The translations under genes and the position numbers were made by a program. 64,000 nt of DNA from an uncultured bacterium (lineage in GTDB: Bacteria; Babelota; Babeliae; Babelales; Vermiphilaceae): the NCBI GenBank assembly GCA_963738145.1, contig CAVTVH010000001.1, forward strand, positions 569,011-633,010. Direction: 5' to 3'. The notes beneath the pieces were generated by a model. That model made no database searches and was not told the DNA's origin. It was given only the letters and a program-made list of their open reading frames with translations. Below are positions 66 to 54,043 of the stretch, piece after piece. Within the stretch, counting starts at the first letter, position 1. Each line of letters begins with the position of its first letter.

Positions 66-599
66 CTATTTTCCAATGCCAATATTACCACAACCAATGC
101 GTGCACCAGCATTGCCAGATGGTTGCGTGGTTAAGTCATCTTCTTGTGCATGTATAATGACACTTCTTCCAAGAATGCTGTTCTTGCCATTGAGCGCAAG
201 ATACGGATCGATAAAATCTACTGAGGCTTGTCCTTGTTCATCGGCAACAATATTACCAAAATCGCCTACGTGACGTTTGGGGCTTGTGCGGCTACCATGA
301 GGTTGGCCTGTTGGATTAAAATGGCCGCCAGCACATACGGCATCGTCACAACCACAATCACCAAATTCGTGAATATGGAATCCATGGCTACCGGGTGTTA
401 ATCCTGTAAAGGTACCAACCACGCGTACGCCATTTTTTTCCTGAGTAAACGTTACCTTGCCTTGCATGGTATTACCTTTGGTGGGATGAACAACGGCAAC
501 GGCTTGTGTGATCGCCGTGTAAAAAGGTGAAAAAGTATAATAAAACGGGCTCAATAAAAAACAAATAACGACCATTAAAAGATGTAGAATGAAGTTCAT
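66..599 (-). CDS. sodC: Cu/Zn superoxide dismutase, exported
   Basis: 177-aa ORF with Cu/Zn-SOD signatures HGFHIHEFGDCG, GGHFNP, HVGDFGNI and GNAGARIGCG. The hydrophobic N-terminus suggests export. Confidence 0.9.
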   Translation of the reverse strand: MNFILHLLMVVICFLLSPFYYTFSPFYTAITQAVAVVHPTKGNTMQGKVTFTQEKNGVRVVGTFTGLTPGSHGFHIHEFGDCGCDDAVCAGGHFNPTGQPHGSRTSPKRHVGDFGNIVADEQGQASVDFIDPYLALNGKNSILGRSVIIHAQEDDLTTQPSGNAGARIGCGNIGIGK

Positions 600-13910: not shown

Positions 13911-14165
13911 ATGGCAACGAGTAAATCCGGTGGTTCGACGACTAATGGTCGCGAGAGTATAAGTAAACGACTAGGCGTTAAACTTTTTGACGGCCAAGTT
14001 GTTCAAGGCGGAGAAATTATAGTTCGTCAACGTGGTACCCGCATCAATGCAGGTAAAATGGTTTCTCGAGCAGGTGACGATACCTTATTTGCCATGGGCG
14101 CTGGGGTTATCAAGTTCCATTTTGGTCGCAAAGGCCGTAAATACGTTTCTGTTCTTAAAGTATAA
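13911..14165 (+). CDS. rpmA: 50S ribosomal protein L27
   Basis: [43 protein letters not shown] aligns along its length with L27. RBS AAGGA. Confidence 0.9.
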
Positions 14166-20027: not shown

Positions 20028-20034
20028 GAAAGTT

Positions 20035-20501
20035 TGGAGGCGATGGGAGTCGAACCCATGTCCGTATCACGTCAAGAATCGAGCACTACACGCTTAGTTT
20101 TTGATGATACTGTGCATGACCTCAAAAACAGAGTAAATCATGCAAGCTTATTGGGTGATACACACAATCCCACGCAATAAATAATCCTTGGATAGTGGTC
20201 CTATCTTTTATTATACGAATGAGCTCAGCTGATAGACACGCCTTGCCCAAAAGAGTGTTTGCGTCTTACGCAACTCTAAAAAGTCTTTGTCTGCGTGCCG
20301 CTACTGCAGGAGCAAATGCTGCTGCTATGCTAGCCATTACAAAACCAAGTACTTCCATAAAGCCAAAGCGTTCGCCTTGGACACCTGCATCACTTTGAGT
20401 GTTTGCATTTATCTTTTTTAACCAATTGTTTAACGAGCACTTGATCAACGCTCGGCATGCTCTCAACGCCATCAATAACACGTCGAAACCAGTACGCCCC
20501 C
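20035..20501 (-). ncRNA. ssrA: tmRNA (SsrA), copy 1, ~467 nt, long tag reading frame
   Basis: On the minus strand: 5' GGGGGCGTACTGGTTTCGACGTG ... GGACATGGGTTCGACTCCCATCGCCTCCA 3'. The 7-bp acceptor stem has a G3:U70 pair and there is a T-arm. CCA is not encoded. Homologous along its length to copy 2. Confidence 0.85.
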
Positions 20502-20557: not shown

Positions 20558-20710
20558 TATCAAAGGATATGTTTATGATAGCATAGCTACCTCAAATGTT
20601 AAGAATGATTATTTTTCCCACTCTGCTATATTAAAATCAGGTAAAAATTCAATATTTTTAAGTTGTTAGGAAAAGATTTTCAACCCCCCTTCCCACACAA
20701 AGGACCCTCC

Positions 20711-21250
20711 ATGACTTCAAAAAACCTCACTATTTTCCTCACCCTCCTCGCACTAACCCCAGCCACACTAGTGTCATTCGCCGTTATTAATCAAACCGAT
20801 ACGGCAAAAGAGTTGGAATTGACCGAGGCATATCGCCATACATCTAAAATGCCAGATGGAGGGACTTCGTCAAAGGTTGTGCCCCTTAACGATACAAATA
20901 AACCCCATGCGCTCACGGTAGCAGCTAAATCCATAGTTTATTTTAAACTGACACAAGCATGCCCGGTGATGCTGTGTGATGTTATAACAACAACAGTGAA
21001 AGATAATACAACAACAGAATCGCGGATGCAGACTTGTTATGAGCCTTATCCTTTGACTCGTACCGAAAAAGCTTCAAAGTTTACCGATAAGTGGGGTTTA
21101 GTTATATGCAAACCGGATGCTTACAATAACGATTATGCTAACTCTTTTGCAAGACGTACGGCTCTCATGCAAGGATATGGCATTAAAATAGCACATCCCC
21201 AACTCCTGAAAAAAACAACCGTAGATGCATTGCCAAAAGAACTTGCCTAG
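20711..21250 (+). CDS. hypothetical secreted protein
   Basis: Signal peptide MTSKNLTIFLTLLALTPATLVSFA. No family recognised. Confidence 0.4.
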   Translation: MTSKNLTIFLTLLALTPATLVSFAVINQTDTAKELELTEAYRHTSKMPDGGTSSKVVPLNDTNKPHALTVAAKSIVYFKLTQACPVMLCDVITTTVKDNTTTESRMQTCYEPYPLTRTEKASKFTDKWGLVICKPDAYNNDYANSFARRTALMQGYGIKIAHPQLLKKTTVDALPKELA

Positions 21251-21372
21251 CCCTATAAACTAATATGATCCAACAAAGCTGGGAAGATTCAAAACCTCCC
21301 CGGCTTCATTTTTTTAGTAATACGTTATACTAGTGCTCAATTAAGAAAATCGCATTACCCTAGGATTTTCAA

Positions 21373-23403
21373 ATGAAGCACTCCATTTATTTATCGCTTA
21401 TTCTTGTAACCATTCCTTTCACCATTGCCGCACACAAAGATTCCAACACATCGTTATTTCATAAAATAAAACATCATTGTGTTTCTATGCTACCGGAAGT
21501 GGAAAAAGATTGGCCAAATGAGGCTTTCTATGACTACGTAGAGCGGTGTATGAAGTATCAGCGTGATTTGCAGCCGATAGAAAAAACACGAGCAGTATTT
21601 AAAATATTTTCTCCTCATCACAAAAAGGCATGCGCTCAGGTGCTTGCTGACACAAAAACATGGCAAGATCTGTGTTTATTCGGGACAGAACAGGGGTTTG
21701 AGGGATCATTTTTACATAAAATTAATCGCACGATCAGTGAATTAGGCCGCATTCATATTGTGTGTATGATGGCACAACCATTAACTGATTGTAAAAAAAT
21801 AAAGAAACGCCAACGTATTATTAAAGCATTCGTTGAAGATGAGCAGTTATATGCATCGGTAAGCGCATTGCTGAAGGAATTTTCAACGCTCGAGAACTTC
21901 CTCTTTTCATTTTGGTTGCAAGACATGCTACGTCAGGCATCAAAAAAACATTATTTCAGTGTCCCCTATTTTAAGAAATTCAACGAGAACCTTAATAAAA
22001 GCGAAATAGCCCTTGATGTAAAAACCTATTTTGACCATGGTAAACGATGTATGTGGTTTATCAGTACAGCCGCGGCAGCAATCGTATTACCGATCTATGG
22101 GTATATGCAATACACAAGCGCGGACATTGGCCCAACATTTCAAGAGACGGCCGAGCGGCTAACTGGTTCTGGAGGCCCTGCAATAGTATGGCTTATGTCG
22201 TTGATTAAGAATAATAAACTTAAAGGGCTGGCATCTGCAGGAGCAGGTTGGGTGTGTGGTGTTGTGGCAAAAGAGGAGTTTGATTGGGCCTACGACAATA
22301 TTTTTTTAGAAACATGTTTGCAAGAAAAACTTATAGCAGTTTCACGAGCTCAGAAAATTATCAAGGAGCTAGCCGTTTGCGTCCATGAACATGAAGAACT
22401 TATGCAAGGGCTAGATTTTGCAGAACATCTTAAAGATTACGCCAAGGGGCACGGGACATCTGATGGAATGCGTAAGCTTACTAAACTTTTGAAAAGTACA
22501 ACATTTGCATCGCAGCCGTCACCATGTTCACGATTGGGAAGAGTGCTTGTTACGTATGATCTTATGCATGAAGTTAAATCAGAATGGACGGGAGCGCTTG
22601 CAGCATTAGGAGAGTTGGATGCTTATGTGGCTTTAGCTAGCTTGTATAAAGAGTATGAAAACAAAGAAAGACGATTCTGTTTTGTAGGTTTTGTGGAACA
22701 TGATAAACCAACTATAGTGATGCAACAATTTTGGAATCCGTGTGTTAATGCACAAAACGTAGTTGCCAATTCTATTACTGTCGGTGGTAATGAACGCCAA
22801 AATATTATTATTAGTGGGCCAAATGCGGGTGGAAAATCTACATTATTGCGTTCAATTGCACATAATCTTATTCTTGGCCAAACATTCGGTATAGCGGCAG
22901 CACAGGAGATGTCGATTACGCCATTTAGTTTTATCGCTACTTACTTAAATATTGCCGACGATATTCTTTCGGGGACCTCAATGTTTAAAGCTCAGGTTTT
23001 ACGAGCACAATGGCTCCTCGATAAAACAAGCACTTTATCTGAAAAAGATTTTTCGTTCATTGTAGTGGATGAGATTTTTAGTGGTACGGCTCCTCGTGAA
23101 GGGCAAGCTGCTTCGTATGCCTTTGCCAAATATATGGGTAGCATGCCAAATTGCATATCTATGATTGCGACACATTTTCCTCTTTTACTGCAATTGCAGG
23201 AGGAAACAACTTCATTTGCTAACTATAAAGTCTCGGTTTCTGTCGGCCCTGATGGGACTATTATATATCCTTTCACCATTCAAAAGGGTGCATCAGACCA
23301 AAATATAGCATTTGATATATTACGGGCTGAAGGTTTTGATCACGCTATTTTAGAAAGTGCATATGAAGTTTTACGTTCCCATCAACTCAATTTTACAGCG
23401 TAG
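21373..23403 (+). CDS. MutS-related protein: signal peptide and TM segments plus a C-terminal MutS domain V ATPase, with no mismatch-binding domain
   Basis: Walker A GPNAGGKSTLLRS, STF-like SGTSMFKAQ, Walker B FIVVDEIFSGTAPREG and ATHF. The N-terminal 450 aa lack MutS domain I and contain hydrophobic helices (CMWFISTAAAAIVLPIYGYM, LASAGAGWVCGVVA). Confidence 0.75.
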   Translation: MKHSIYLSLILVTIPFTIAAHKDSNTSLFHKIKHHCVSMLPEVEKDWPNEAFYDYVERCMKYQRDLQPIEKTRAVFKIFSPHHKKACAQVLADTKTWQDLCLFGTEQGFEGSFLHKINRTISELGRIHIVCMMAQPLTDCKKIKKRQRIIKAFVEDEQLYASVSALLKEFSTLENFLFSFWLQDMLRQASKKHYFSVPYFKKFNENLNKSEIALDVKTYFDHGKRCMWFISTAAAAIVLPIYGYMQYTSADIGPTFQETAERLTGSGGPAIVWLMSLIKNNKLKGLASAGAGWVCGVVAKEEFDWAYDNIFLETCLQEKLIAVSRAQKIIKELAVCVHEHEELMQGLDFAEHLKDYAKGHGTSDGMRKLTKLLKSTTFASQPSPCSRLGRVLVTYDLMHEVKSEWTGALAALGELDAYVALASLYKEYENKERRFCFVGFVEHDKPTIVMQQFWNPCVNAQNVVANSITVGGNERQNIIISGPNAGGKSTLLRSIAHNLILGQTFGIAAAQEMSITPFSFIATYLNIADDILSGTSMFKAQVLRAQWLLDKTSTLSEKDFSFIVVDEIFSGTAPREGQAASYAFAKYMGSMPNCISMIATHFPLLLQLQEETTSFANYKVSVSVGPDGTIIYPFTIQKGASDQNIAFDILRAEGFDHAILESAYEVLRSHQLNFTA

Positions 23404-24637
23404 AAACAGTAAAGAAGTTTGACCATTTTTTAAGCCGTTGTAACTGTATGTGGGCTTGTTGCATGCGTATATCCTTAAACTGATCGCTTGAGACCCACTG
23501 AGGAATGATTTTGTGGGCATAGTCCATAAAACAGTCAAAACCTATGCAATACTTTTGATTACCTTGGCTATCCGTTATTTTTTCAGGAAATGCGACGCCA
23601 ATGCCAAAAAGCCGAGGAGCTATAAGGCCATTTGCTTCGTTGTAAGAAACTATAGGAGTAGCTCCATTAATAGATGGAAGATCATTGCGTTCATAACCAA
23701 TCGCATAAATTACTTTAGTACACCTGGTGTTGGTAAGGCCGGCAGCAATATCTTGATCGGTTGGTGTGTAGATGCGAGTTAAGTTTGCAGGCGGATTAAT
23801 TTCAAGTACATTTTGCGCCCATTCAGCAGCAACGCCTTTTAATTCAGTTGTTTTGCTTAGTAAAGGGTTACTTTTTTCTGCTACAAATTTGAGGGGAGTA
23901 CGGTAGAAATTGTAAATATGGTCTACTGGTTTTTCTAATTCCGATAAAAATTTTAAGAGTAAAATTGCTGAATGCGAGCTACCTACAACAGCTACCCTAT
24001 CATTTGGTGTTACTAGCGTGGGCAGGATAAACCTATCCAGAGCACTATCAAGAGGAATTGTTTTATCTTTTTCATAGGGCAGCTCTTTTGGATATGATCC
24101 AGTTGCGAGTATAACATGGTGAGCGGAAAGCTCCTGCCCTCCTTTAGTGTTAACATGCCAGGTGTTGTTATCAAAATAGAGGGCGTCCATAGAATCTTGT
24201 ACCGCATGAATACGCGCTTTAAGGTAATTGGTTATCTGTTGTAGGGGCCTGACAATAACCCCTAATTCATAGCCTCGCTCATTTGGGTCTAAGGTTTTGA
24301 GGTAATCTAATTCGGCACAGGAACAGTTTTGAAATGTTGTACATGTGCTTACAAAGTCTATGAACTCTTGTACTCTGCTGTTAGCAAAAACACGTTGATA
24401 AAAGGCGCCCATACGGCCCACATTAAATTCAGGGTCAAGCCAAATAATACTTTCTTGGCGTACGCCAATATCTAAAAGGACACCGATAGTAAGAATCCCT
24501 GCAGGACCAGCCCCAACAATAAGCCAATCGGCGACATGTTGAGGTTGCGCGGGTGTGTTGTTACCCACAAGTTGGGGATTAGGCACCGCAATTAAAGAAA
24601 GTGAAAATATACAATAGGCAAATAAAGTGTATTTCAT
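23393..24637 (-). CDS. FAD/NAD(P)-binding oxidoreductase with signal peptide
   Basis: Two dinucleotide-binding motifs (WLIVGAGPAGI and VAVVGSSHSA). Start at MKYTLFAYCIFSLSLIA, preceded by AAAGGA. Confidence 0.6.
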   Translation of the reverse strand: MKYTLFAYCIFSLSLIAVPNPQLVGNNTPAQPQHVADWLIVGAGPAGILTIGVLLDIGVRQESIIWLDPEFNVGRMGAFYQRVFANSRVQEFIDFVSTCTTFQNCSCAELDYLKTLDPNERGYELGVIVRPLQQITNYLKARIHAVQDSMDALYFDNNTWHVNTKGGQELSAHHVILATGSYPKELPYEKDKTIPLDSALDRFILPTLVTPNDRVAVVGSSHSAILLLKFLSELEKPVDHIYNFYRTPLKFVAEKSNPLLSKTTELKGVAAEWAQNVLEINPPANLTRIYTPTDQDIAAGLTNTRCTKVIYAIGYERNDLPSINGATPIVSYNEANGLIAPRLFGIGVAFPEKITDSQGNQKYCIGFDCFMDYAHKIIPQWVSSDQFKDIRMQQAHIQLQRLKKWSNFFTVSTL

Positions 24638-24879
24638 GGGAATCCTTTGAAAAAAGTCTATTTTGGCTAACACTACTGATCCGCGCAGGCTTTTGTAAAG
24701 GATTTCGAGAGAAATTCTGGCATACCCCTGCGGGCCATACCATTTGAAATTATTGTTATCCTGAGTATTGTTAAATATATATGTTGAAATTGAAGGTTAA
24801 AGTACCATTCTTGAGCAAGAATATTGAGAGAGGGACTCTTTTTTGGGTATCCTTTGAGAGTTGATCATTGAAATATTAG

Positions 24880-25236
24880 GGGGGCGTCAAGGTCTCGACG
24901 TGGTAGAAATGCCATCAAGAGCATGCCGAGCGTTGTTCAAGTGCTCGTTAAACAATTGGACAAATACCTAATTGCAACTGTTAATTCAGCTGCCTTTACG
25001 GCGTAAGCCGTAAAAGACTTGTTAATGAGCCGTGTCTATCAGGTGAATTAACTCGTATAATACAAGATAGAACTTTCGGGTAAGATTTTTTGATTTTGTA
25101 TCCCGTAAAGTATCACTAAACCAACATACCTATCGAAGTCTGTCTTTGAGCTGATAGGTGTGTACATTCTAAGACTGAGCATGGAGCGCTTGATTGTTGA
25201 CCACTGCGGACATGGGTTCGATTCCCATCGCCTCCA
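24880..25236 (+). ncRNA. ssrA: tmRNA (SsrA), copy 2, ~357 nt, 10-codon tag
   Basis: 5' GGGGGCGTCAAGGTCTCGACGTGG ... GGACATGGGTTCGATTCCCATCGCCTCCA 3'. Acceptor stem with G3:U70. Tag frame GCA ACT GTT AAT TCA GCT GCC TTT ACG GCG TAA (24974-25006) encodes ATVNSAAFTA. Confidence 0.85.
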
Positions 25237-25278
25237 ATCTTTTACCCAATTTTGCCAGGGGCAAGAATTGGGACCCAA

Positions 25279-25490
25279 TTCGCCTGCGGGGGAAAGACTT
25301 TGAAGTGTGGCTGGGCGACATTGGCTGCGCCGCATTTGATATAAGATGACTTAGGCGAAGATTGCCCCACGTAGCTAAGAGATACCCCATAGATATTCCC
25401 CACGAAAGCGAAGTGTGGGCTGGCTGCAAATGTAAATTGACTATTTATTGATTCGCCTACGGGGGGAGAAACTTCGAGGGTTTGGCCACC
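25279..25490 (-). repeat. composite of family B repeats immediately 3' of tmRNA copy 2
   Basis: Direct ~40-nt repeats TTCGCCTGCGGGGGAAAGACTTTGAAGTGTGGCTGGGCGAC (25279) and TTCGCCTACGGGGGGAGAAACTTCGAGGGTTTGGCCACC (25452). The central part is the reverse complement of the 15241-15320 repeat. Confidence 0.6.
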
Positions 25491-25558
25491 ACTGCTCCTT
25501 ACCAAGAATTTAAGACTGATAGTTGAAATGTGAAGGTTATCTATTTTGGAGGTTATAT

Positions 25559-26089
25559 ATGGATTCTATAAGAAGACTTTTGATAATTACGGGCCACCTA
25601 TTCATTGCAGGTGTAATGCATGGTGCTGGTGCCGATATCCCGCTTGAGCGGATAGTTGGTGATACTGCCGGATCACTCACACCGCTGTTAGCATCATCCC
25701 CTACAGCTGCTGAAAAAGATCTGTGTTCTATTTGTCATGACGATCTTAAAGACAACCTATCTACGTTGCCTTGTAAGCATAGATTGCACACCGAATGCTA
25801 TGAGGGTTTAATAAATTCAAGGTTAGTAAGTGAAGCAGTTCTATGTCCATTGTGTCGGGCTGATGTGGGGATAAAAGGGCAAAATCAACCAGATGTTGCG
25901 CTACGGGTAGTTCCTGCAGCAGATAATCAAGTATTACAAGAACTTCAACGAGCGCGAGAGCGAGCATCGGCAAGAGGGCTCAGACATTGTATTGGTGGCT
26001 TGTGTTTGCTAGGAGCGGCTATAGCTATTGTTGTTTCCTTAAATTATCATTTTCAGTGGATACAGTTTGGGCCTACTACAGGACATTAA
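25559..26089 (+). CDS. RING-H2 finger protein with N-terminal signal peptide and C-terminal TM helix
   Basis: C-x2-C-x12-C-x-H-x2-H-x2-C-x15-C-x2-C (CSICHDD..LPCKHRLHTEC..CPLC) at 25724-25855. GGAGG RBS lies 7 nt before the ATG. C-terminal anchor IGGLCLLGAAIAIVVSL. Confidence 0.75.
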   Translation: MDSIRRLLIITGHLFIAGVMHGAGADIPLERIVGDTAGSLTPLLASSPTAAEKDLCSICHDDLKDNLSTLPCKHRLHTECYEGLINSRLVSEAVLCPLCRADVGIKGQNQPDVALRVVPAADNQVLQELQRARERASARGLRHCIGGLCLLGAAIAIVVSLNYHFQWIQFGPTTGH

Positions 26090-26104
26090 AGGAGATACAG
26101 TCAA

Positions 26105-26632
26105 ATGAACTATTTAAGGTTTTTTTTAACCCTACATTGTCTGTTGTTAATCACTACTTTTTATGCCAGTTCTCCATTATCAACTATTCAAGTATCATCG
26201 CCGTCATCGGAGCTTCTACTAACTCATGACGCCACTTCTGCAGATGAGTTTGCATCAGAAAGTTCTAAGCGAGCATGCGCCATCTGTTTAGAAGATCTTA
26301 CGAGTCCAAAAAAAGAATTGCCTTGTGCTCATGAATTTCATGCGGTTTGTTACCAAGAATTGAAAAAATCTAAGCCAGAAAGCGAACAGATAAAATGTCC
26401 CTTGTGTCGAGCAGGTACAGGTGAACAAGGAGAAAACAAAGAGGCTGCGCAAGAAATAGGGGTTGGACAACCACAACCGGCCTTCGACGTAATTGAAGCA
26501 GAGAGATTGAGACGTAGGACATTACTAAAATGGGTCTGCGCCGGGATTATTGTTGTTGGTTCTACAGTTGCATTCACCTTGCTAAATGCTCAGTATGGGT
26601 GGATACATTTTGATCCTCATGGTATTCCCTAA
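26105..26632 (+). CDS. RING-H2 finger protein, tandem paralogue
   Basis: Identical spacing of metal ligands (CAICLED..LPCAHEFHAVC..CPLC) at 26276-26407. Has a signal peptide, C-terminal TM WVCAGIIVVGSTVAFTLL and a shared tail motif Y-x-W-I-x-F. Confidence 0.75.
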   Translation: MNYLRFFLTLHCLLLITTFYASSPLSTIQVSSPSSELLLTHDATSADEFASESSKRACAICLEDLTSPKKELPCAHEFHAVCYQELKKSKPESEQIKCPLCRAGTGEQGENKEAAQEIGVGQPQPAFDVIEAERLRRRTLLKWVCAGIIVVGSTVAFTLLNAQYGWIHFDPHGIP

Positions 26633-26768
26633 AAATCTTACCCCCTTGAGGCCAAAGACTCTTATTTGAAACTTTTTGATTTTTCTATATATTCTAAATG
26701 TGCGCATTTTGGATGTGCTCTTTAAGTAAAGCAGACTTCTAACTAGGGTATATAGGGAGACCATTTTT

Positions 26769-27056
26769 ATGATACGTATACAATCTTTATTAAGCATAAG
26801 CCTTTTATTATTCGCTTCTTCTTTTTCCTACGCAGCCGAACAAGATCAGTTAAAAGGGGGTATAGAAATGCCCTCATCACCTCTAGGTGCTTCCTGCACA
26901 TCTATTAATATTAGTACCGTCCCTCTTTTGAATAATGAAACTCCTGTCATTAGTGGTGGATCAACTTGTTTAAAGGCCTGCGTTCTTACTACAATTTCTG
27001 TAGGTCTATTGTCGGCATTGGCAATTGGTGGCATGCATATTGCGCAGTCGATGTAA
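26769..27056 (+). CDS. hypothetical small exported protein with C-terminal TM helix
   Basis: 95-aa ORF with a signal peptide and the hydrophobic C-terminus CVLTTISVGLLSALAIGGM. Confidence 0.35.
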   Translation: MIRIQSLLSISLLLFASSFSYAAEQDQLKGGIEMPSSPLGASCTSINISTVPLLNNETPVISGGSTCLKACVLTTISVGLLSALAIGGMHIAQSM

Positions 27057-27867: not shown

Positions 27868-28383
27868 ATGACTATAAAAGCAATTATAGGTTTGGGTAAC
27901 CCCGGCCCTAAATATTATAATAATCGCCATAACATTGGTTTTCGCGTGGTAGATGCCTTAGCGGATCGATTTGCTGGTTCTTGGCATCAAAAGGGGAGCA
28001 TGGAATTGGCAGAAATAACTTTACACGGTAACCAGCTACTCCTTATTAAGCCTCAAACATTTATGAATAGTTCCGGCAACGTGATCCCGTTCTTGCAGAA
28101 AAAAGGAGTTAAGCCAGAAGAAATTTTGGTGGTGCACGATGAACTCGAGCTGCCCTTTGGCGTCCTTAAATTAAAAATGGGGGGCAGCGCTAAGGGGCAC
28201 AATGGCCTTAAATCTATCATCGCTCACTGTGGCCCAGAATTTATGCGGCTTCGCTTTGGCATCGGCCGCCCCGAACAGCGGGAAATGGTGCCCGATTATG
28301 TTCTGCAAAACTTCTCTGAAAAATCAGATGAGATTGAGCGGCATATTAGCGAGGCAGTGGCTATGATTGAACGGGAAAAATAA
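27868..28383 (+). CDS. pth: peptidyl-tRNA hydrolase
   Basis: IIGLGNPGPKYYNNRHNIGF, HDELELPFG and GGSAKGHNGLKSI. Confidence 0.9.
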   Translation: MTIKAIIGLGNPGPKYYNNRHNIGFRVVDALADRFAGSWHQKGSMELAEITLHGNQLLLIKPQTFMNSSGNVIPFLQKKGVKPEEILVVHDELELPFGVLKLKMGGSAKGHNGLKSIIAHCGPEFMRLRFGIGRPEQREMVPDYVLQNFSEKSDEIERHISEAVAMIEREK

Positions 28384-28777
28384 ATCGGCTTGTTGAAGAA
28401 CTACTGCTCGAAGATAATGAGCTTGATGAAGATGATGGTGTGGTGTTTGGTGTATCTGTGAATCTTGCAAGAGAACCATGTGATGTTGTCATTGAGCCGT
28501 GTAATGGACTGTTTGTAGGGGTTGTTAGAGGAATTGCTGTAGGAGTTGCTTTAGGGGATCTTTTGGCTATTTCTCTAAGATTGCCATACATGACACGTGC
28601 TGTTTCTTGTCCGGTACGCGTCAGTACTCGGTGAGCAGAGTATACATACATCGGCGTTGGCGTGGCGAGGGGTGTGGTATGTCTGGATGTTTCTGGGGTG
28701 CTTGTTGAGGCTCCATACGCCCAAATATTGATTCCAGTAGATATCAAGAAAATAATAGCTCTATACTGTGTACTCAT
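28361..28777 (-). CDS. hypothetical secreted Ser/Thr/Pro-rich protein
   Basis: 138-aa ORF with a signal peptide and a low-complexity tail TPSSSSSSLSSSSSSSTS. Confidence 0.4.
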   Translation of the reverse strand: MSTQYRAIIFLISTGINIWAYGASTSTPETSRHTTPLATPTPMYVYSAHRVLTRTGQETARVMYGNLREIAKRSPKATPTAIPLTTPTNSPLHGSMTTSHGSLARFTDTPNTTPSSSSSSLSSSSSSSTSRFIFPVQS

Positions 28778-28866: not shown

Positions 28867-31481
28867 TTATAAAGGTTGTTCCGCAAGCCATTTTGTAAGA
28901 GCTGCTTCCAACTCAGGACCAAACACTCCGCCACCTTGTAATGTTGTAGCCGAGCCACCACCGCGGATGCCAAGACTATCTTTCAGCCATGTAGCAAACG
29001 AACGCATATCAATGCGCTTGCCTAATTCTGGCGCTAATAAGCAGAAAAAGAGTTGCTTGCCTTCAGTTGTGCTGCTGACAAAATAAAATCCTGGTTGTTT
29101 GGCGTTGAGTCGCGTGGCAATGTCGCGTAGCTCTTCATTGGAAAGATTCTCCTCCATAATAAATAGAAAATTGATGCCGTTAATTGGGGTACTACGTGAT
29201 TGCCATAGAGGAATTTTAGAATAGACTAATTGCTTTTTAACGGAGCGTAATTCTTCTTGCGTCTTTTTTAAAACATCTTGTTGTTTATGCACCGCTTCAA
29301 GCACATCTTCACGTTTTACTTTAAATTCTTGGCTGAGGTTTTTAACGGTATCAAAGCAATCCTGGAATAGCCCTATCGCCTTAGGCCCAGTCACGGCAAC
29401 GATGCGTTTATGGCCCGCAGCTAAGGAGCTAACATCTATGATTTTAAAAGCTCCAATAACACCGGTAGATGGCACATGTGTACCGCCGCATAACTCTGCA
29501 GAAAATCCTGGGATATCAACAAGCCGGACCTTTTCTGGATTATATTTATCGCCAAAAAATGCTAGAGCACCGCGGGTAACGGCTTCTTTCATCGACATAT
29601 ACGCAACGTTGAGTTGGATGTCTTCTCTAATCTTTTCGTTGACCAGATCTTCTATGCGTTTGATCGTTGCGGGAGCTAATGGGTCATGGCAGGTAAAATC
29701 AAAGCGTAAATAATCGGGGTGCACCAATGATCCTGACTGTTTTACTTGTTTGCCCAAGATTTCGATAAGTGCGGCTTGGAGCATGTGGGTGGCAGTGTGG
29801 TTCTTCATGGCATTGGTACGCCATACAGGATCAACCGTTGAAGTAACCGCCATGCCAATTTTAAGGTTAGTTGGCGCTACAATCTGTGGAGCAATTGCAT
29901 TGTTCATATACTGCACGCTAATGATCGGCGTTGTGTGATTGTCTATCGTTAAGGTTCCCTGATCAGGCACTTGGCCGCCGCCAACAATAAAAAAGGGGGA
30001 CTTTTGAGCGATAACAAAGCAGGATTGACCAGCAGTCACTGAGTCGACAACTTTTTGATTATGTACAAGAGCTAGTATAGTTGATGGCGTAGAAAGTTCG
30101 GTATATCCAGTGAATTCTGATACAAGCGCCGGATCTATGTCGACTTCAACTTCATGGGCGCCAGCTTTTTTGCCCGACTGCTCTTTTTGTTTGAGCATCT
30201 CTTGTTCAAAGCCCTTGGTATCCACCGTAAAGCCATGCTCACGTGCCATAATTTCAATCAGCTCGGAGGGGAACCCAAAAGTATCGTAGAGTTTGAATGC
30301 TTCTGTTCCGCTGACAACTTTATTTGTTTGATGTGCCGCAAAGTAGTTTTTTAACAGAGCATTACCGCGTACTAAGTTGGCGGAAAATTTATCGATCTCG
30401 CTTTTGAGGATTTCCAAAATGAGCGTAGCACTTGTTTTTAATTCTGGGTAAATGGCAGCAAAATCATCGACAACAACCGCTGATAGTTCAGGAAAAATAT
30501 TTTTATCAGTGAGCTTTTGAGTGAATAGGGCTGCGCGCCTGATGATTTTGCGCAGAACATAGCCGCGACCCTCATTTGAAGGAGCGCATCCATCAGCAAT
30601 GAGCATGGTTGATGAACGAATGTGGTCAGCTAATACATGGAAGGCTGCCTTAGTTGCAGCGTCTTGTTGGCTATAGGTTTTGCCTGTTAACTCTTCTATT
30701 TTACGGATAATGCCGGAAAAAAGGTCGGTTTCATAAACAGAATCTTTGTTTTGCAAGACTGGCACACAAACGTTCAAGGCCCATGCCAGTATCAACGCCC
30801 GTTTGACGCAAAGGTTTATCGGTGCCATCCGCTTGACGATCAAATTGCATAAATACGATATTCCAGAATTCTAAAAAGCGGTCACAATCACAGCCTGGAG
30901 CGCACTCAGCGGATCTGCAACCGAACGTGGTGCCGCGATCGATATACATTTCGGTACATGGGCCGCAAGGGCCAGTGTCGCCCATTTGCCAGAAGTTATC
31001 CTTGGCGCCAAGGCGATGGATACGTTCTTGGGGAATTGCCGATCATGGTGTGCCACAAGTTGTAGGATTCATCGTCTTGTGTGAATACAGAAACGTGAAT
31101 GTTGTCGGCTGCTATTTTGTAATCTTTAGTGATGAGTTCCCAGGCAAAGGTGATGGCCTCTTTTTTAAAGTAGTCGCCAAAGGAGAAGTTGCCCATCATT
31201 TCAAAAAAGGTGAGATGGCGTTTGGTGAATCCTACGTTGTCTAAATCGTTATGTTTGCCGCCGGCACGGACACATTTTTGAATAGAAACAGCGCGTTTGT
31301 AACTGCGCGTCTCTTTGCCAAAAAAAAGATCCTTGAACTGGTTCATGCCAGCATTGGCAAATAGCAGCGTAGGATCTTGTGCTGGTATAAGGGACGAACT
31401 GGCCACTTTTTCATGGCCATTGCGGATAAAGTAGTCGAAAAATTTTTTACGGACTTCTAGCGAATTCATATCTATTATCAC
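28867..31481 (-). pseudogene. alaS: alanine--tRNA ligase, split by two 1-nt frameshifts (near 31035 and 30760)
   Basis: Three collinear ORFs. 30996..31481 covers [22 protein letters not shown] and [16 protein letters not shown]. 30731..30985 covers [18 protein letters not shown] and FWNIVFMQF. 28867..30843 covers [13 protein letters not shown], the editing domain HTATHMLQ and the C-terminal domain. Confidence 0.9.
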
Positions 31482-52795: not shown

Positions 52796-54043
52796 TTATC
52801 CCTTCCAACCCTCTTGCCTTAATTCGCTCTCAGCAGCTTGTATCAATCTAAGTGATGCGGCCTGCTTTCTGTCTAACATCTGCCGTTCCTCGAGATCAAA
52901 CACAAATCCTTCCGATCGCCGTATTATTTTAACGAGATCTTTTTTGTTTAATTCGGCAGCAAATAACAACGGGGAGGGTCTTATCGTTACATAGCCACCA
53001 TGACGTAATAATGTATCAATAACATCACCGAGGTCGTTGTTTATCGCCTTATATATAGGATATCTTTCTTCCCCAGAACTTTCTTTCTCATCTGGAACTC
53101 TCGTGAAGGAAGGGTAGGCCATTTTTGCTACCTGAGGGTGTTGATTAATGGTTTGGATGGCCGCTGTGCTATCTTTTCTCCTTATGGCATCATCAAGAAG
53201 TTCCGCTTGAATTTCAAGAGGAGTTAATGGAGTTGGTGGAGCTGGTTTTTTTGCTTCCCTTGCTTCTCGTATTTTGGCGAGCATTTCAAGAGCATATGAG
53301 TCACCAGCCAACATTGTATGTAACATTGTATCTAAACGAGTATTTTCAAGATAAGCGTTATGCTCAATGAGCAGATCGACACTTTTTTGATCATGATGTT
53401 TTAATGCGTTAAGAAGTGATGTGCTATCTGCGGAAGCTTTATCGCTTAATAATAGCTGCATAAATTTAAAAGCCCTTTTTCGATCGGGTAAATTGCTGGC
53501 GATTATGAGCAGCGTTTCCTGGTTAGGACCGAAGTGTTCAAATTTAATTTGAGGTGTTTCTCTGATGAGAGTTGATAGCTGTTCATGATCGCCACTTCTT
53601 ATGGCTTCTCGTGCCGCAGTAAGATTTTTTTGTAAGTGTTCAAGTCTAGCTTTTGTTAAATTAATTTTTTCATTAATAAGAGCTGCTTCTTCTGGCGTTG
53701 CTGGTTCTGCGCCAGCATTAAAGAGCTCAAGAACGAGAGACCAAAGTCCGCCGGCTTGAGCATCCTGTATTCTTCTAGACAACTTTTTAGTTAACTTTGT
53801 TGCCTTGTCTGGATCCAACATATTGACGATTTTATTGATGTCTAAGATTGCGCGAGCTTCGTTAATTATCTCCGGTGTCACGCGTGCTCCATTGGCAATT
53901 GCTTGGTAGATCTTTTTTAATGAGCCCTCACGTACAGCCGTTCTTAGTTCGCCTGGTGCATTGCTCAAGACTCCTATCGCTCCATGGAGCATGTTCACCC
54001 AAAGCGAGCAGCTTGCAAAGAAGATAAGAAAATAAGCATTCAT
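52796..54043 (-). CDS. exported ankyrin-repeat-like protein
   Basis: Signal peptide, then several ~33-aa units with an ANK-like pattern (LLNALKHHDQKSVDLLIEHNAYLE, PIYKAINNDLGDVIDTLLRHGGYV, LLFAAELNKKDLVKII). Confidence 0.5.
   Translation of the reverse strand: MNAYFLIFFASCSLWVNMLHGAIGVLSNAPGELRTAVREGSLKKIYQAIANGARVTPEIINEARAILDINKIVNMLDPDKATKLTKKLSRRIQDAQAGGLWSLVLELFNAGAEPATPEEAALINEKINLTKARLEHLQKNLTAAREAIRSGDHEQLSTLIRETPQIKFEHFGPNQETLLIIASNLPDRKRAFKFMQLLLSDKASADSTSLLNALKHHDQKSVDLLIEHNAYLENTRLDTMLHTMLAGDSYALEMLAKIREAREAKKPAPPTPLTPLEIQAELLDDAIRRKDSTAAIQTINQHPQVAKMAYPSFTRVPDEKESSGEERYPIYKAINNDLGDVIDTLLRHGGYVTIRPSPLLFAAELNKKDLVKIIRRSEGFVFDLEERQMLDRKQAASLRLIQAAESELRQEGWKG

Follow-up and report, generated by a model that had tools for sequence, protein, structure and literature searches.

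Borrowing of RING, U-box and F-box modules by intracellular bacteria is already established, with cases known from Babela, Neochlamydia, Legionella and Simkania. Here we describe two adjacent genes, RING1 and RING2, which lie in a 64-kb stretch of DNA (contig CAVTVH010000001.1, the whole stretch being hereafter the window) from an uncultured bacterium and which extend this theme. As judged by comparison of sequences and predicted folds, both proteins carry genuine RING-H2 domains of the eukaryotic type. We consider it rather probable that these are canonical RING-H2 E3 ubiquitin ligase domains, kept by an intracellular member of the Dependentiae to act on the ubiquitin system of its protist host. 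The combination of a Sec-type signal with a membrane anchor is the one feature of the pair that could be mechanistically new.

Those Dependentiae that are known live as obligate intracellular parasites in protists, and eukaryote-like proteins bearing signal peptides are the norm among them (PMC4378268, PMC6561590). Among the products of Babela massiliensis are a RING finger protein, F-box proteins and deubiquitinases, and of 126 ankyrin proteins in this species 79 bear a signal peptide (PMC4378268). In Chromulinavorax, a signal peptide is present in 44% of the coding sequences, and delivery by Sec and outer-membrane vesicles (OMVs) was proposed (PMC6561590). RING1 and RING2 share with these systems the phylum and a eukaryote-like domain placed behind a signal peptide and presumed to be secreted into the protist; neither a C-terminal anchor nor a tandem arrangement is given for the Babela RING protein in the papers (PMC4378268, PMC6561590).

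SneRING (SNE_A12920) of Simkania negevensis is an experimentally active bacterial RING E3, located partly at the endoplasmic reticulum (ER) and the mitochondria of the host, and the same organism has a neighbouring pair of RING-like genes, SNE_A08690 and SNE_A08700 (PMC12591485). It resembles our pair in being a RING-type E3 from an obligate intracellular bacterium of amoebae. The published description nevertheless sets the two apart: SneRING has His in the Zn1 site and N-x2-C in the Zn2 site, its RING is N-terminal and followed by a C-terminal α/β domain, no signal peptide or transmembrane (TM) segment is described for it, and it belongs to another phylum (PMC12591485). NEX1b, a RING/U-box-LRR protein of Neochlamydia (PMC4209131), LubX of Legionella and NleG are likewise eukaryote-type, E2-recruiting modules of intracellular or pathogenic bacteria. 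Unlike RING1 and RING2, they come as fusions with substrate-binding domains (LRR or others), are delivered by type III or type IV secretion, and are of the U-box or RING/U-box type, partly zinc-free.

On the eukaryotic side, the RING-H2 E3s (RNF38, Arkadia-RNF165, RLIM, HRD1, gp78) have the same eight C3H2C3 ligands and the same Ile, Pro and linchpin Arg positions, and they gave the best sequence and fold matches. Our pair differs from them in a longer second loop (x15), in a Leu for the helix Trp, in its bacterial host, in the predicted Sec-type signal before the RING and the predicted tail anchor after it, and in the lack of any similarity outside the RING of ~ 50 residues. Tail-anchored RING proteins of the RNF5/RMA1 type also occur in eukaryotes. 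These, and the RING-helix proteins of giant viruses, resemble the pair in the order RING, C-terminal TM, short tail, but they have no N-terminal signal peptide, and their TM and tail cannot be aligned with those of the pair. Compared with the Babela RING protein, NEX1b, LubX and SneRING, the pair differs in its fully canonical ligands, the absence of a recognisable substrate domain, the predicted signal-RING-tail-anchor layout, and a tail motif of its own. No full-length counterpart of this architecture was found in 1.84 billion representative proteins.

The RING-H2 domains

The ligand pattern C-x2-C-x12-C-x-H-x2-H-x2-C-x15-C-x2-C, which an earlier sequence-only reading of this DNA had reported with identical spacing in both genes, is exact in RING1 and in RING2 (Table 1). 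A strict expression of the pattern matched twice among the six-frame open reading frames (ORFs) of the window and never in 200 shuffles. A looser RING expression found nothing in ~ 780 kb of related Dependentiae loci and nothing in 491 kb of metagenomic loci. Both domains passed the Pfam cut-offs of zf-C3HC4 (PF00097; 35.3 bits for RING1 and 33.7 bits for RING2, cut-off 21) and of zf-RING_2 (PF13639; 33.4 and 34.8 bits, respectively, cut-off 27.3), the family proposed earlier as a check. In an alignment of 74 RING sequences the ligand columns were invariant, the one holding H77 of RING1 and H79 of RING2 nearly so.

A profile search of the PDB with the pair matched RING E3 ligases exclusively, namely RNF38 (E 5.5e-8), RLIM, HRD1/synoviolin, Arkadia, RCHY1, RNF165, gp78/AMFR, ZNRF3, and RNF13. 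The AlphaFold2 models, for which the input was the same 74-sequence alignment built from RING proteins, reached a predicted local distance difference test score (pLDDT) of 89–97 over the RING in both proteins. When these models from a RING-based alignment were compared with the PDB by Foldseek, only RING domains were returned, the best being RNF38, RNF165, HRD1, gp78, and TRIM25, with a target-normalised TM-score of up to 0.81 and a root-mean-square deviation of ~ 2 Å. The closest matches in both sequence and fold are RING E3s and not bacterial zinc ribbons, and the assignment to the eukaryotic type was borne out. The proteins are not E3s of the PA-TM-RING kind (RNF13/GRAIL type): their parts run signal, RING, TM, a PA domain was looked for in them without success, and the RING of RNF13 is a generic fold match only.

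The roles of individual RING positions in E2 contact, and of the linchpin, are well established and are reflected in the titles of PDB entries 9q8y and 5lg7. The E2-contact positions are kept in both proteins: the Ile after Cys1 (I58 in RING1, I60 in RING2), the Leu of the helix (L84, L86), and the Pro after Cys7 (P97, P99). The Ile and the Pro are invariant or nearly invariant across the 74-sequence alignment; the helix position holds Leu in RING1 and RING2 and Trp in RNF38 and Arkadia. The Arg that follows Cys8 (R100, R102) is also kept and occupies the linchpin position. By the usual position rule, we take it to be the equivalent of the RNF38 linchpin R454, which is named in the title of entry 9q8y. 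In the HMMER alignment to RNF38, CPLCRAD pairs with CPICRAD.

Conjugation systems with E1- and E2-like proteins exist in bacteria, and the earlier premise that bacteria lack a ubiquitin system was too absolute. RING-like bacterial domains tied to operons with E1, E2 and JAB genes are also known (the Prok-RING families of Pfam), and the pair might belong to such a ubiquitin-like conjugation system, with bacterial or phage targets inside the bacterium. We find this very improbable. Prok-RING_4 (PF14447) stayed below its threshold, with 11.4 bits and E 0.32 against a cut-off of 27; no E1, E2, JAB or ubiquitin-like gene was found among the neighbours (tmRNA, OmpH, Pth and AlaRS) or the window ORFs scanned; the pair matched no PADLOC defence family; and the N-terminal export signal speaks against a cytoplasmic role. 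NCBIfam likewise gave no match for the pair.

Signal, anchor and tail

The hydrophobic N-terminus and the C-terminal TM helix that had been read from the letters were both recovered as Kyte-Doolittle peaks and as helices of the models. At the N-terminus of RING1, the Kyte-Doolittle peak covers residues 7–25, the model helix covers residues 2–21, and a charge bias is present. The presumed signal cleavage of RING2, placed heuristically, falls between MNYLR-FFLTLHCLLLITTFYA and SS. The C-terminal helix is long in both models (residues 123–169 in RING1 and 127–163 in RING2) and reaches Kyte-Doolittle values of 2.0–2.2 over 19 residues. The 15 residues ahead of the TM helix of RING1 (LQRARERASARGLRH) contain five Arg, and the C-terminal TM is flanked by five Lys/Arg within 15 residues on its N-terminal side and by no Lys/Arg on the other.

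The proteins do share a C-terminal tail, for which the form Y-x-W-I-x-F had been given. The leading Tyr is literal only in RING2, and the true form is [F/Y]-x-W-I-x-F-x-P, realised as F-Q-W-I-Q-F-G-P in RING1 and as Y-G-W-I-H-F-D-P in RING2. The motif is unique to the pair, with no other occurrence in the ORFs of the window and of the comparison loci L001–L057.

The charge bias of the N-terminus predicts an N-in/C-out orientation, with export of the part downstream. From the charge pattern of the C-terminal helix we infer a tail-anchor signature, with the N-terminal domain in the cytosol. Taken at face value, the two predicted topologies conflict within one membrane. Both would be compatible with two stages, in which the protein first leaves the bacterium and is then inserted into a membrane facing the host, its RING in the host cytosol.

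The main alternative, which the same layout also allows, is that RING1 and RING2 are bacterial envelope proteins, in which the signal is cleaved, the helix stops transfer, and a periplasmic, RING-like zinc module stays on the inner membrane in a role unrelated to ubiquitin. Signal peptide, soluble domain, hydrophobic helix and short tail make a textbook type I protein; the genes nearby code for envelope or secreted proteins (OmpH/Skp, and orf95 of the same layout); and a dedicated effector secretion system was not seen in the window. We nevertheless regard this explanation as unlikely. All E2-contact features are retained in both paralogues at 30% identity, which would be unexpected if E2 binding were irrelevant, and Lys/Arg on the RING side with none in the tail is the opposite of what the positive-inside rule demands of a type I protein. 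Moreover, Cys/His zinc sites fare poorly in the oxidising periplasm, and we know of no RING family with an envelope role in bacteria.

Relatives and origin of the RING

In a word-index search for full-length relatives, each query found only itself, and RING1 and RING2 both proved to be singletons in a collection of ~ 15 billion sequences. When the 1.84 billion representative proteins were searched exhaustively by profile, 2576 matches at E ≤ 0.001 were obtained; apart from RING1 and RING2 themselves, every one of them was limited to the RING (~ 50 residues). Some of the better ones (P0025, P0080, P0100, P0118, P0026) resemble the pair in their x12 spacing, their long second loop and the sequence CPLCR; these proteins also have a C-terminal TM and are of low-complexity composition. 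Contigs and metagenome-assembled genomes (MAGs) of giant viruses reached 47–48% identity over ~ 50 residues, restricted to the RING and set in unrelated architectures, and the fold matches in BFVD were likewise RING proteins of giant viruses. These comparisons indicate that the type of the RING is, ultimately, that of eukaryotes or giant viruses. The donor search that had been suggested yielded no specific eukaryotic or other donor that could be named.

The best non-self match of the RING profile in the representative library, P0003, is a protein of 745 aa built of eight nearly identical RING-H2 units in tandem, perhaps the product of a eukaryotic gene that was misassembled or has expanded its repeats.

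Host organism and proposed role

The window is a piece of ordinary bacterial chromosome, with genes for SecF, Rho, TsaD, SmpB, a MutS-like protein, OmpH/Skp, Pth, AlaRS, SHMT, EF-P, NusB, NDK, S1, PolA, PriA, LeuRS, Ddl, and SOD. AlaRS, Pth and SmpB have their best matches, at 52–67%, in MAGs of Dependentiae/Babeliales, and the best relatives of AlaRS (52–61%) come exclusively from Dependentiae/Babeliales (TM6) genomes. Pth reached at most 67% identity in metagenomes, with no RING in the 80 loci concerned, and a metagenome search with OmpH, aimed at closer relatives, gave no match. On these matches, the source belongs to the Dependentiae, in a lineage for which no close relatives have been sequenced. 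An affiliation with the Chlamydiae, to which the GC content of ~ 42% and the eukaryote-like genes had at first pointed, was rejected on the placement of AlaRS, Pth and SmpB. The window also encodes an ankyrin-repeat protein of 415 aa (52796–54043, minus strand; Ank_2 29.6 bits), which is typical of Dependentiae host-interaction genes.

We propose that RING1 and RING2 would be co-transcribed and translated from strong Shine-Dalgarno sites. The N-terminal Sec-type signal would export each protein from the cytoplasm, as suggested by its sequence pattern and by the signal-peptide effectors found throughout the phylum. The C-terminal helix, which has Arg/Lys towards the RING and a short aromatic tail free of charges, would serve as a tail anchor, probably in a membrane that faces the host (vacuole, ER, mitochondrion or bacterial surface), and the RING would point towards the host cytosol. 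By homology, the RING could there bind host E2~ubiquitin, with the Ile that follows Cys1, the Leu of the helix and the Pro that follows Cys7 as contacts and the Arg after Cys8 as the linchpin, and could promote ubiquitin transfer onto nearby host or bacterial proteins. As no substrate-binding domain is recognisable, substrate specificity may come from the membrane anchoring itself.

The sequence-only reading had suggested that the pair are secreted effectors directed at host ubiquitination, which is plausible for obligate intracellular Dependentiae with their eukaryote-like proteins behind signal peptides. Several points weigh against this interpretation. E3 activity, secretion and localisation are inferences throughout. 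With a RING-based alignment as input, part of the RING fold was given to the AlphaFold2 models from the outset, and the cross-brace zinc site is a predicted one. No orthologues were found that would show conservation beyond one genome. The signal peptide and the TM helix were assigned solely from hydropathy, charge and the helices of the models, and so hydrophobic a helix behind a Sec signal would normally be a stop-transfer anchor in the inner membrane. Stopping at this helix would leave the RING in the periplasm, where its zinc cysteines might be oxidised and no E2 is at hand. Finally, no route across the outer membrane was identified for the pair.

More tentatively, RING1 and RING2 could be the first Sec-exported, tail-anchored bacterial RING E3s, either inserted into a host organelle or vacuole by helix and tail after an exit in OMVs or through a reduced envelope, or displayed on the bacterial surface, where they would recruit host E2s. 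If true, a membrane-bound ubiquitin ligase would be planted by a bacterium in its host along a route that needs no secretion system. The Dependentiae are a widespread and almost unstudied phylum of protist parasites, and the pair bears on the question of how hosts are manipulated where classical effector-injection machines are lacking. The signal-peptide and tail-anchor layout makes one part of it concrete, namely by which route membrane-anchored effectors leave the cell. The two proteins are small and predicted to be soluble between residues ~ 26 and 140, which makes them an easy in vitro target for studying the writing of host ubiquitin marks.

The gene pair

Two ORFs lie in tandem where the sequence-only reading had placed them (Table 1). 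They are on the same strand and separated by 15 nt, and from this spacing they look like, and the sequence suggests, an operon. The proposed duplication was confirmed, as the proteins are paralogues with 30% identity over the full length (E 6e-22). Despite this low identity, both retain the eight ligands together with the TM, the tail and an N-terminus that resembles a signal. In a second, independent short-read assembly (Logan ERR10755946, locus L001), RING1 and RING2 are 100% identical to those of the window, and the gene order RING1-RING2-orf95-OmpH-Pth-AlaRS is the same; the linkage of the pair is therefore not an assembly artefact. Conservation between the paralogues, the Shine-Dalgarno sites and the identical second assembly show that RING1 and RING2 are real genes.

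An assembly chimera or contamination, with eukaryotic or viral DNA misjoined to a bacterial contig, would account for a RING of eukaryotic type, and the adjacent inverted tmRNA repeat can confuse assemblers; the L001 contig breaks just there. The chance of this is slight in the extreme, given that L001 independently joins all six genes named above at 100% identity, and that the genes have bacterial Shine-Dalgarno sites, no introns, operon-like spacing of 15 nt, and host-like GC content.

The neighbouring orf95 has a promoter-like site of its own (26666–26693), and its membership in the same system is uncertain. On the plus strand of the 321-nt spacer between transfer-messenger RNA (tmRNA) copy 2 and RING1 (25238–25558), no consensus promoter for the pair was found. 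The GC content of this spacer is somewhat raised, at 0.46, and it holds no convincing ORF and no Rfam match past the end of the tmRNA.

Table 1. Positions of RING1, RING2 and adjacent features in the window.
Feature	Position	Strand	Remarks
tmRNA gene copy 2	24880..25237	+	ARAGORN; Rfam RF00023 at 137.8 bits (cut-off 47); 3' end 321 nt upstream of RING1
Shine-Dalgarno GGAGG of RING1	25548..25552	+	6 nt before ATG; read from sequence
RING1 (ORF1, P0001), 176 aa	25559..26089	+	ATG 25559 to stop 26089; signal-peptide-like N-terminus, linker, RING-H2, linker, Arg-rich stretch, TM helix, aromatic tail
RING1 residues 1–25, MDSIRR-LLIITGHLFIAGVM-HGAGA	25559..25633	+	Sec-type n/h/c pattern; possible cleavage between AGA and D; heuristic
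RING1 RING-H2 core, C56–C99	25724..25855	+	ligands C56 C59 C72 H74 H77 C80 C96 C99; pLDDT 89–96
RING1 C-terminal TM helix, residues 144–161, CIGGLCLLGAAIAIVVSL	25988..26041	+	predicted from hydropathy, model and charge
RING1 aromatic tail, NYHFQWIQFGPTTGH	26042..26086	+	uncharged; contains [F/Y]-x-W-I-x-F-x-P
Shine-Dalgarno AAGGAG of RING2	26089..26094	+	10 nt before ATG; read from sequence
RING2 (ORF2, P0002), 175 aa	26105..26632	+	ATG 26105 to stop 26632; architecture as RING1
RING2 residues 1–21, MNYLR-FFLTLHCLLLITTFYA	26105..26167	+	signal-peptide-like, heuristic; model helix 2–21
RING2 RING-H2 core, C58–C101	26276..26407	+	ligands C58 C61 C74 H76 H79 C82 C98 C101; pLDDT 93–97
RING2 C-terminal TM helix, residues 144–161, VCAGIIVVGSTVAFTLLN	26534..26587	+	preceded by ERLRRRTLLK
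RING2 aromatic tail, AQYGWIHFDPHGIP	26588..26629	+	
orf95, orphan neighbour	26769..27056	+	signal-peptide and C-terminal-TM layout as in the RING pair, without a RING

The tmRNA neighbourhood

The pair does lie downstream of tmRNA copy 2, and this position at an ssrA 3' end had been read as the mark of an island. A recent genomic island, with RING genes brought in from a eukaryote or giant virus, would fit the short distance of 321 nt from the tmRNA 3' end, the lack of any counterpart of RING1, RING2 and orf95 in the related loci, and the variability of the stretch between tmRNA and OmpH/Pth among Dependentiae, with small secreted orphan ORFs in each. It could also draw on the GC content at third codon positions (GC3), which lies at the lower edge of the host's range (0.288 for RING1, 0.295 for RING2), and on the giant-virus MAGs (47–48% over ~ 50 residues) among the best non-self RING matches.

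The island argument found no support, and we consider such a delivery improbable. RING1, RING2 and orf95 are the only genes between tmRNA copy 2 and OmpH; none of them matches an integrase family, and no integrase or other mobility gene is present in this interval. With up to three mismatches allowed, the 23-nt 3' end of the tmRNA occurs only in the two tmRNA genes of the window, without an att-like third copy, and no suitable direct repeat was found in the 64 kb. The GC content (0.441 for RING1, 0.413 for RING2) agrees with that of the host (0.424 ± 0.027), and the GC3 and codon score, although at the low edge, are within the host range. The order AlaRS, Pth, OmpH ... tmRNA, SmpB recurs in other Dependentiae, so the tmRNA stands near OmpH, Pth and AlaRS by ancestry. 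The absence of the pair from the nearest relatives says little about its time of arrival, as these are distant (AlaRS ≤ 61%, Pth ≤ 67%).

What fills the interval between OmpH and tmRNA varies: relatives carry a P-type ATPase and small orphan ORFs bearing signal peptides, and this genome has the RING pair and orf95. Judged by these comparisons, the slot is plastic, and nothing in it points to recent integration. As the paralogues are only 30% identical, the duplication is old. The RING genes look long resident and duplicated in place, and not like a recent delivery by an ssrA island.

We must also note that the window has two full-length tmRNA genes, inverted and 4.4 kb apart, at 20034–20501 (minus strand) and 24880–25237 (plus strand), with Rfam scores of 125.6 and 137.8 bits, respectively; the related loci have at most one each. 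The copies are ~ 66% identical to each other, and each is 60–68% identical to tmRNAs of other Dependentiae. Being no closer to each other than to those, they do not derive from a recent tmRNA duplication. Copy 1 is longer by ~ 110 nt, and its tag frame continues to ...AAAFAPAVAARRQRLFRVA and a stop. It adjoins SmpB in an orientation that is inverted compared with the co-oriented SmpB-tmRNA of relatives. The segment between the copies (20663–24673) holds an orphan ORF of 195 aa, a MutS-like protein, and, on the opposite strand, an FAD-dependent oxidoreductase. The MutS-like protein has domains III and V only and gave weak PADLOC matches, e.g. mad8 with E 1e-4. Recombination between the two tmRNA genes could invert this segment.

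The relatives have a conserved family of small (85–107 aa), Cys-rich proteins with signal peptides and the motifs QEDI, ECF-x-C-x-CP and EHT. Members are found at 14152–14475 in L024, 18395–18706 in L002, and 19314–19571 in L034, and also in L005 and L025. In the first three loci, the gene is next to the tmRNA in a convergent arrangement, directed at the tmRNA 3' end; L005 and L025 showed no tmRNA within the locus. We considered this family as a relative of the RING pair and rejected it: the two are unrelated, and the family is absent from the window, where the RING pair sits in the equivalent slot.

Other features of the window

The orphan orf138 (28361–28777, minus strand) has a signal-peptide-like N-terminus and is rich in Ser, Thr and Pro. 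Neither orf95 nor orf138 has a Pfam or NCBIfam match, and neither gave a tblastn match in the related loci. AlaRS is split over two frames in the window (28867–30843 and 30996–31481, both minus strand). Its parts are collinear in related Dependentiae, being in the same frame in L002, and in L001, a contig of the same organism, the gene is called differently (776 aa). The split is probably an indel error of the assembly, or else the gene is a pseudogene. Near the start of the window, two paralogous D-Ala-D-Ala ligase genes stand in tandem (617–1798 and 1761–2957, both minus strand), adjoining a Cu/Zn superoxide dismutase gene (66–599, minus strand).

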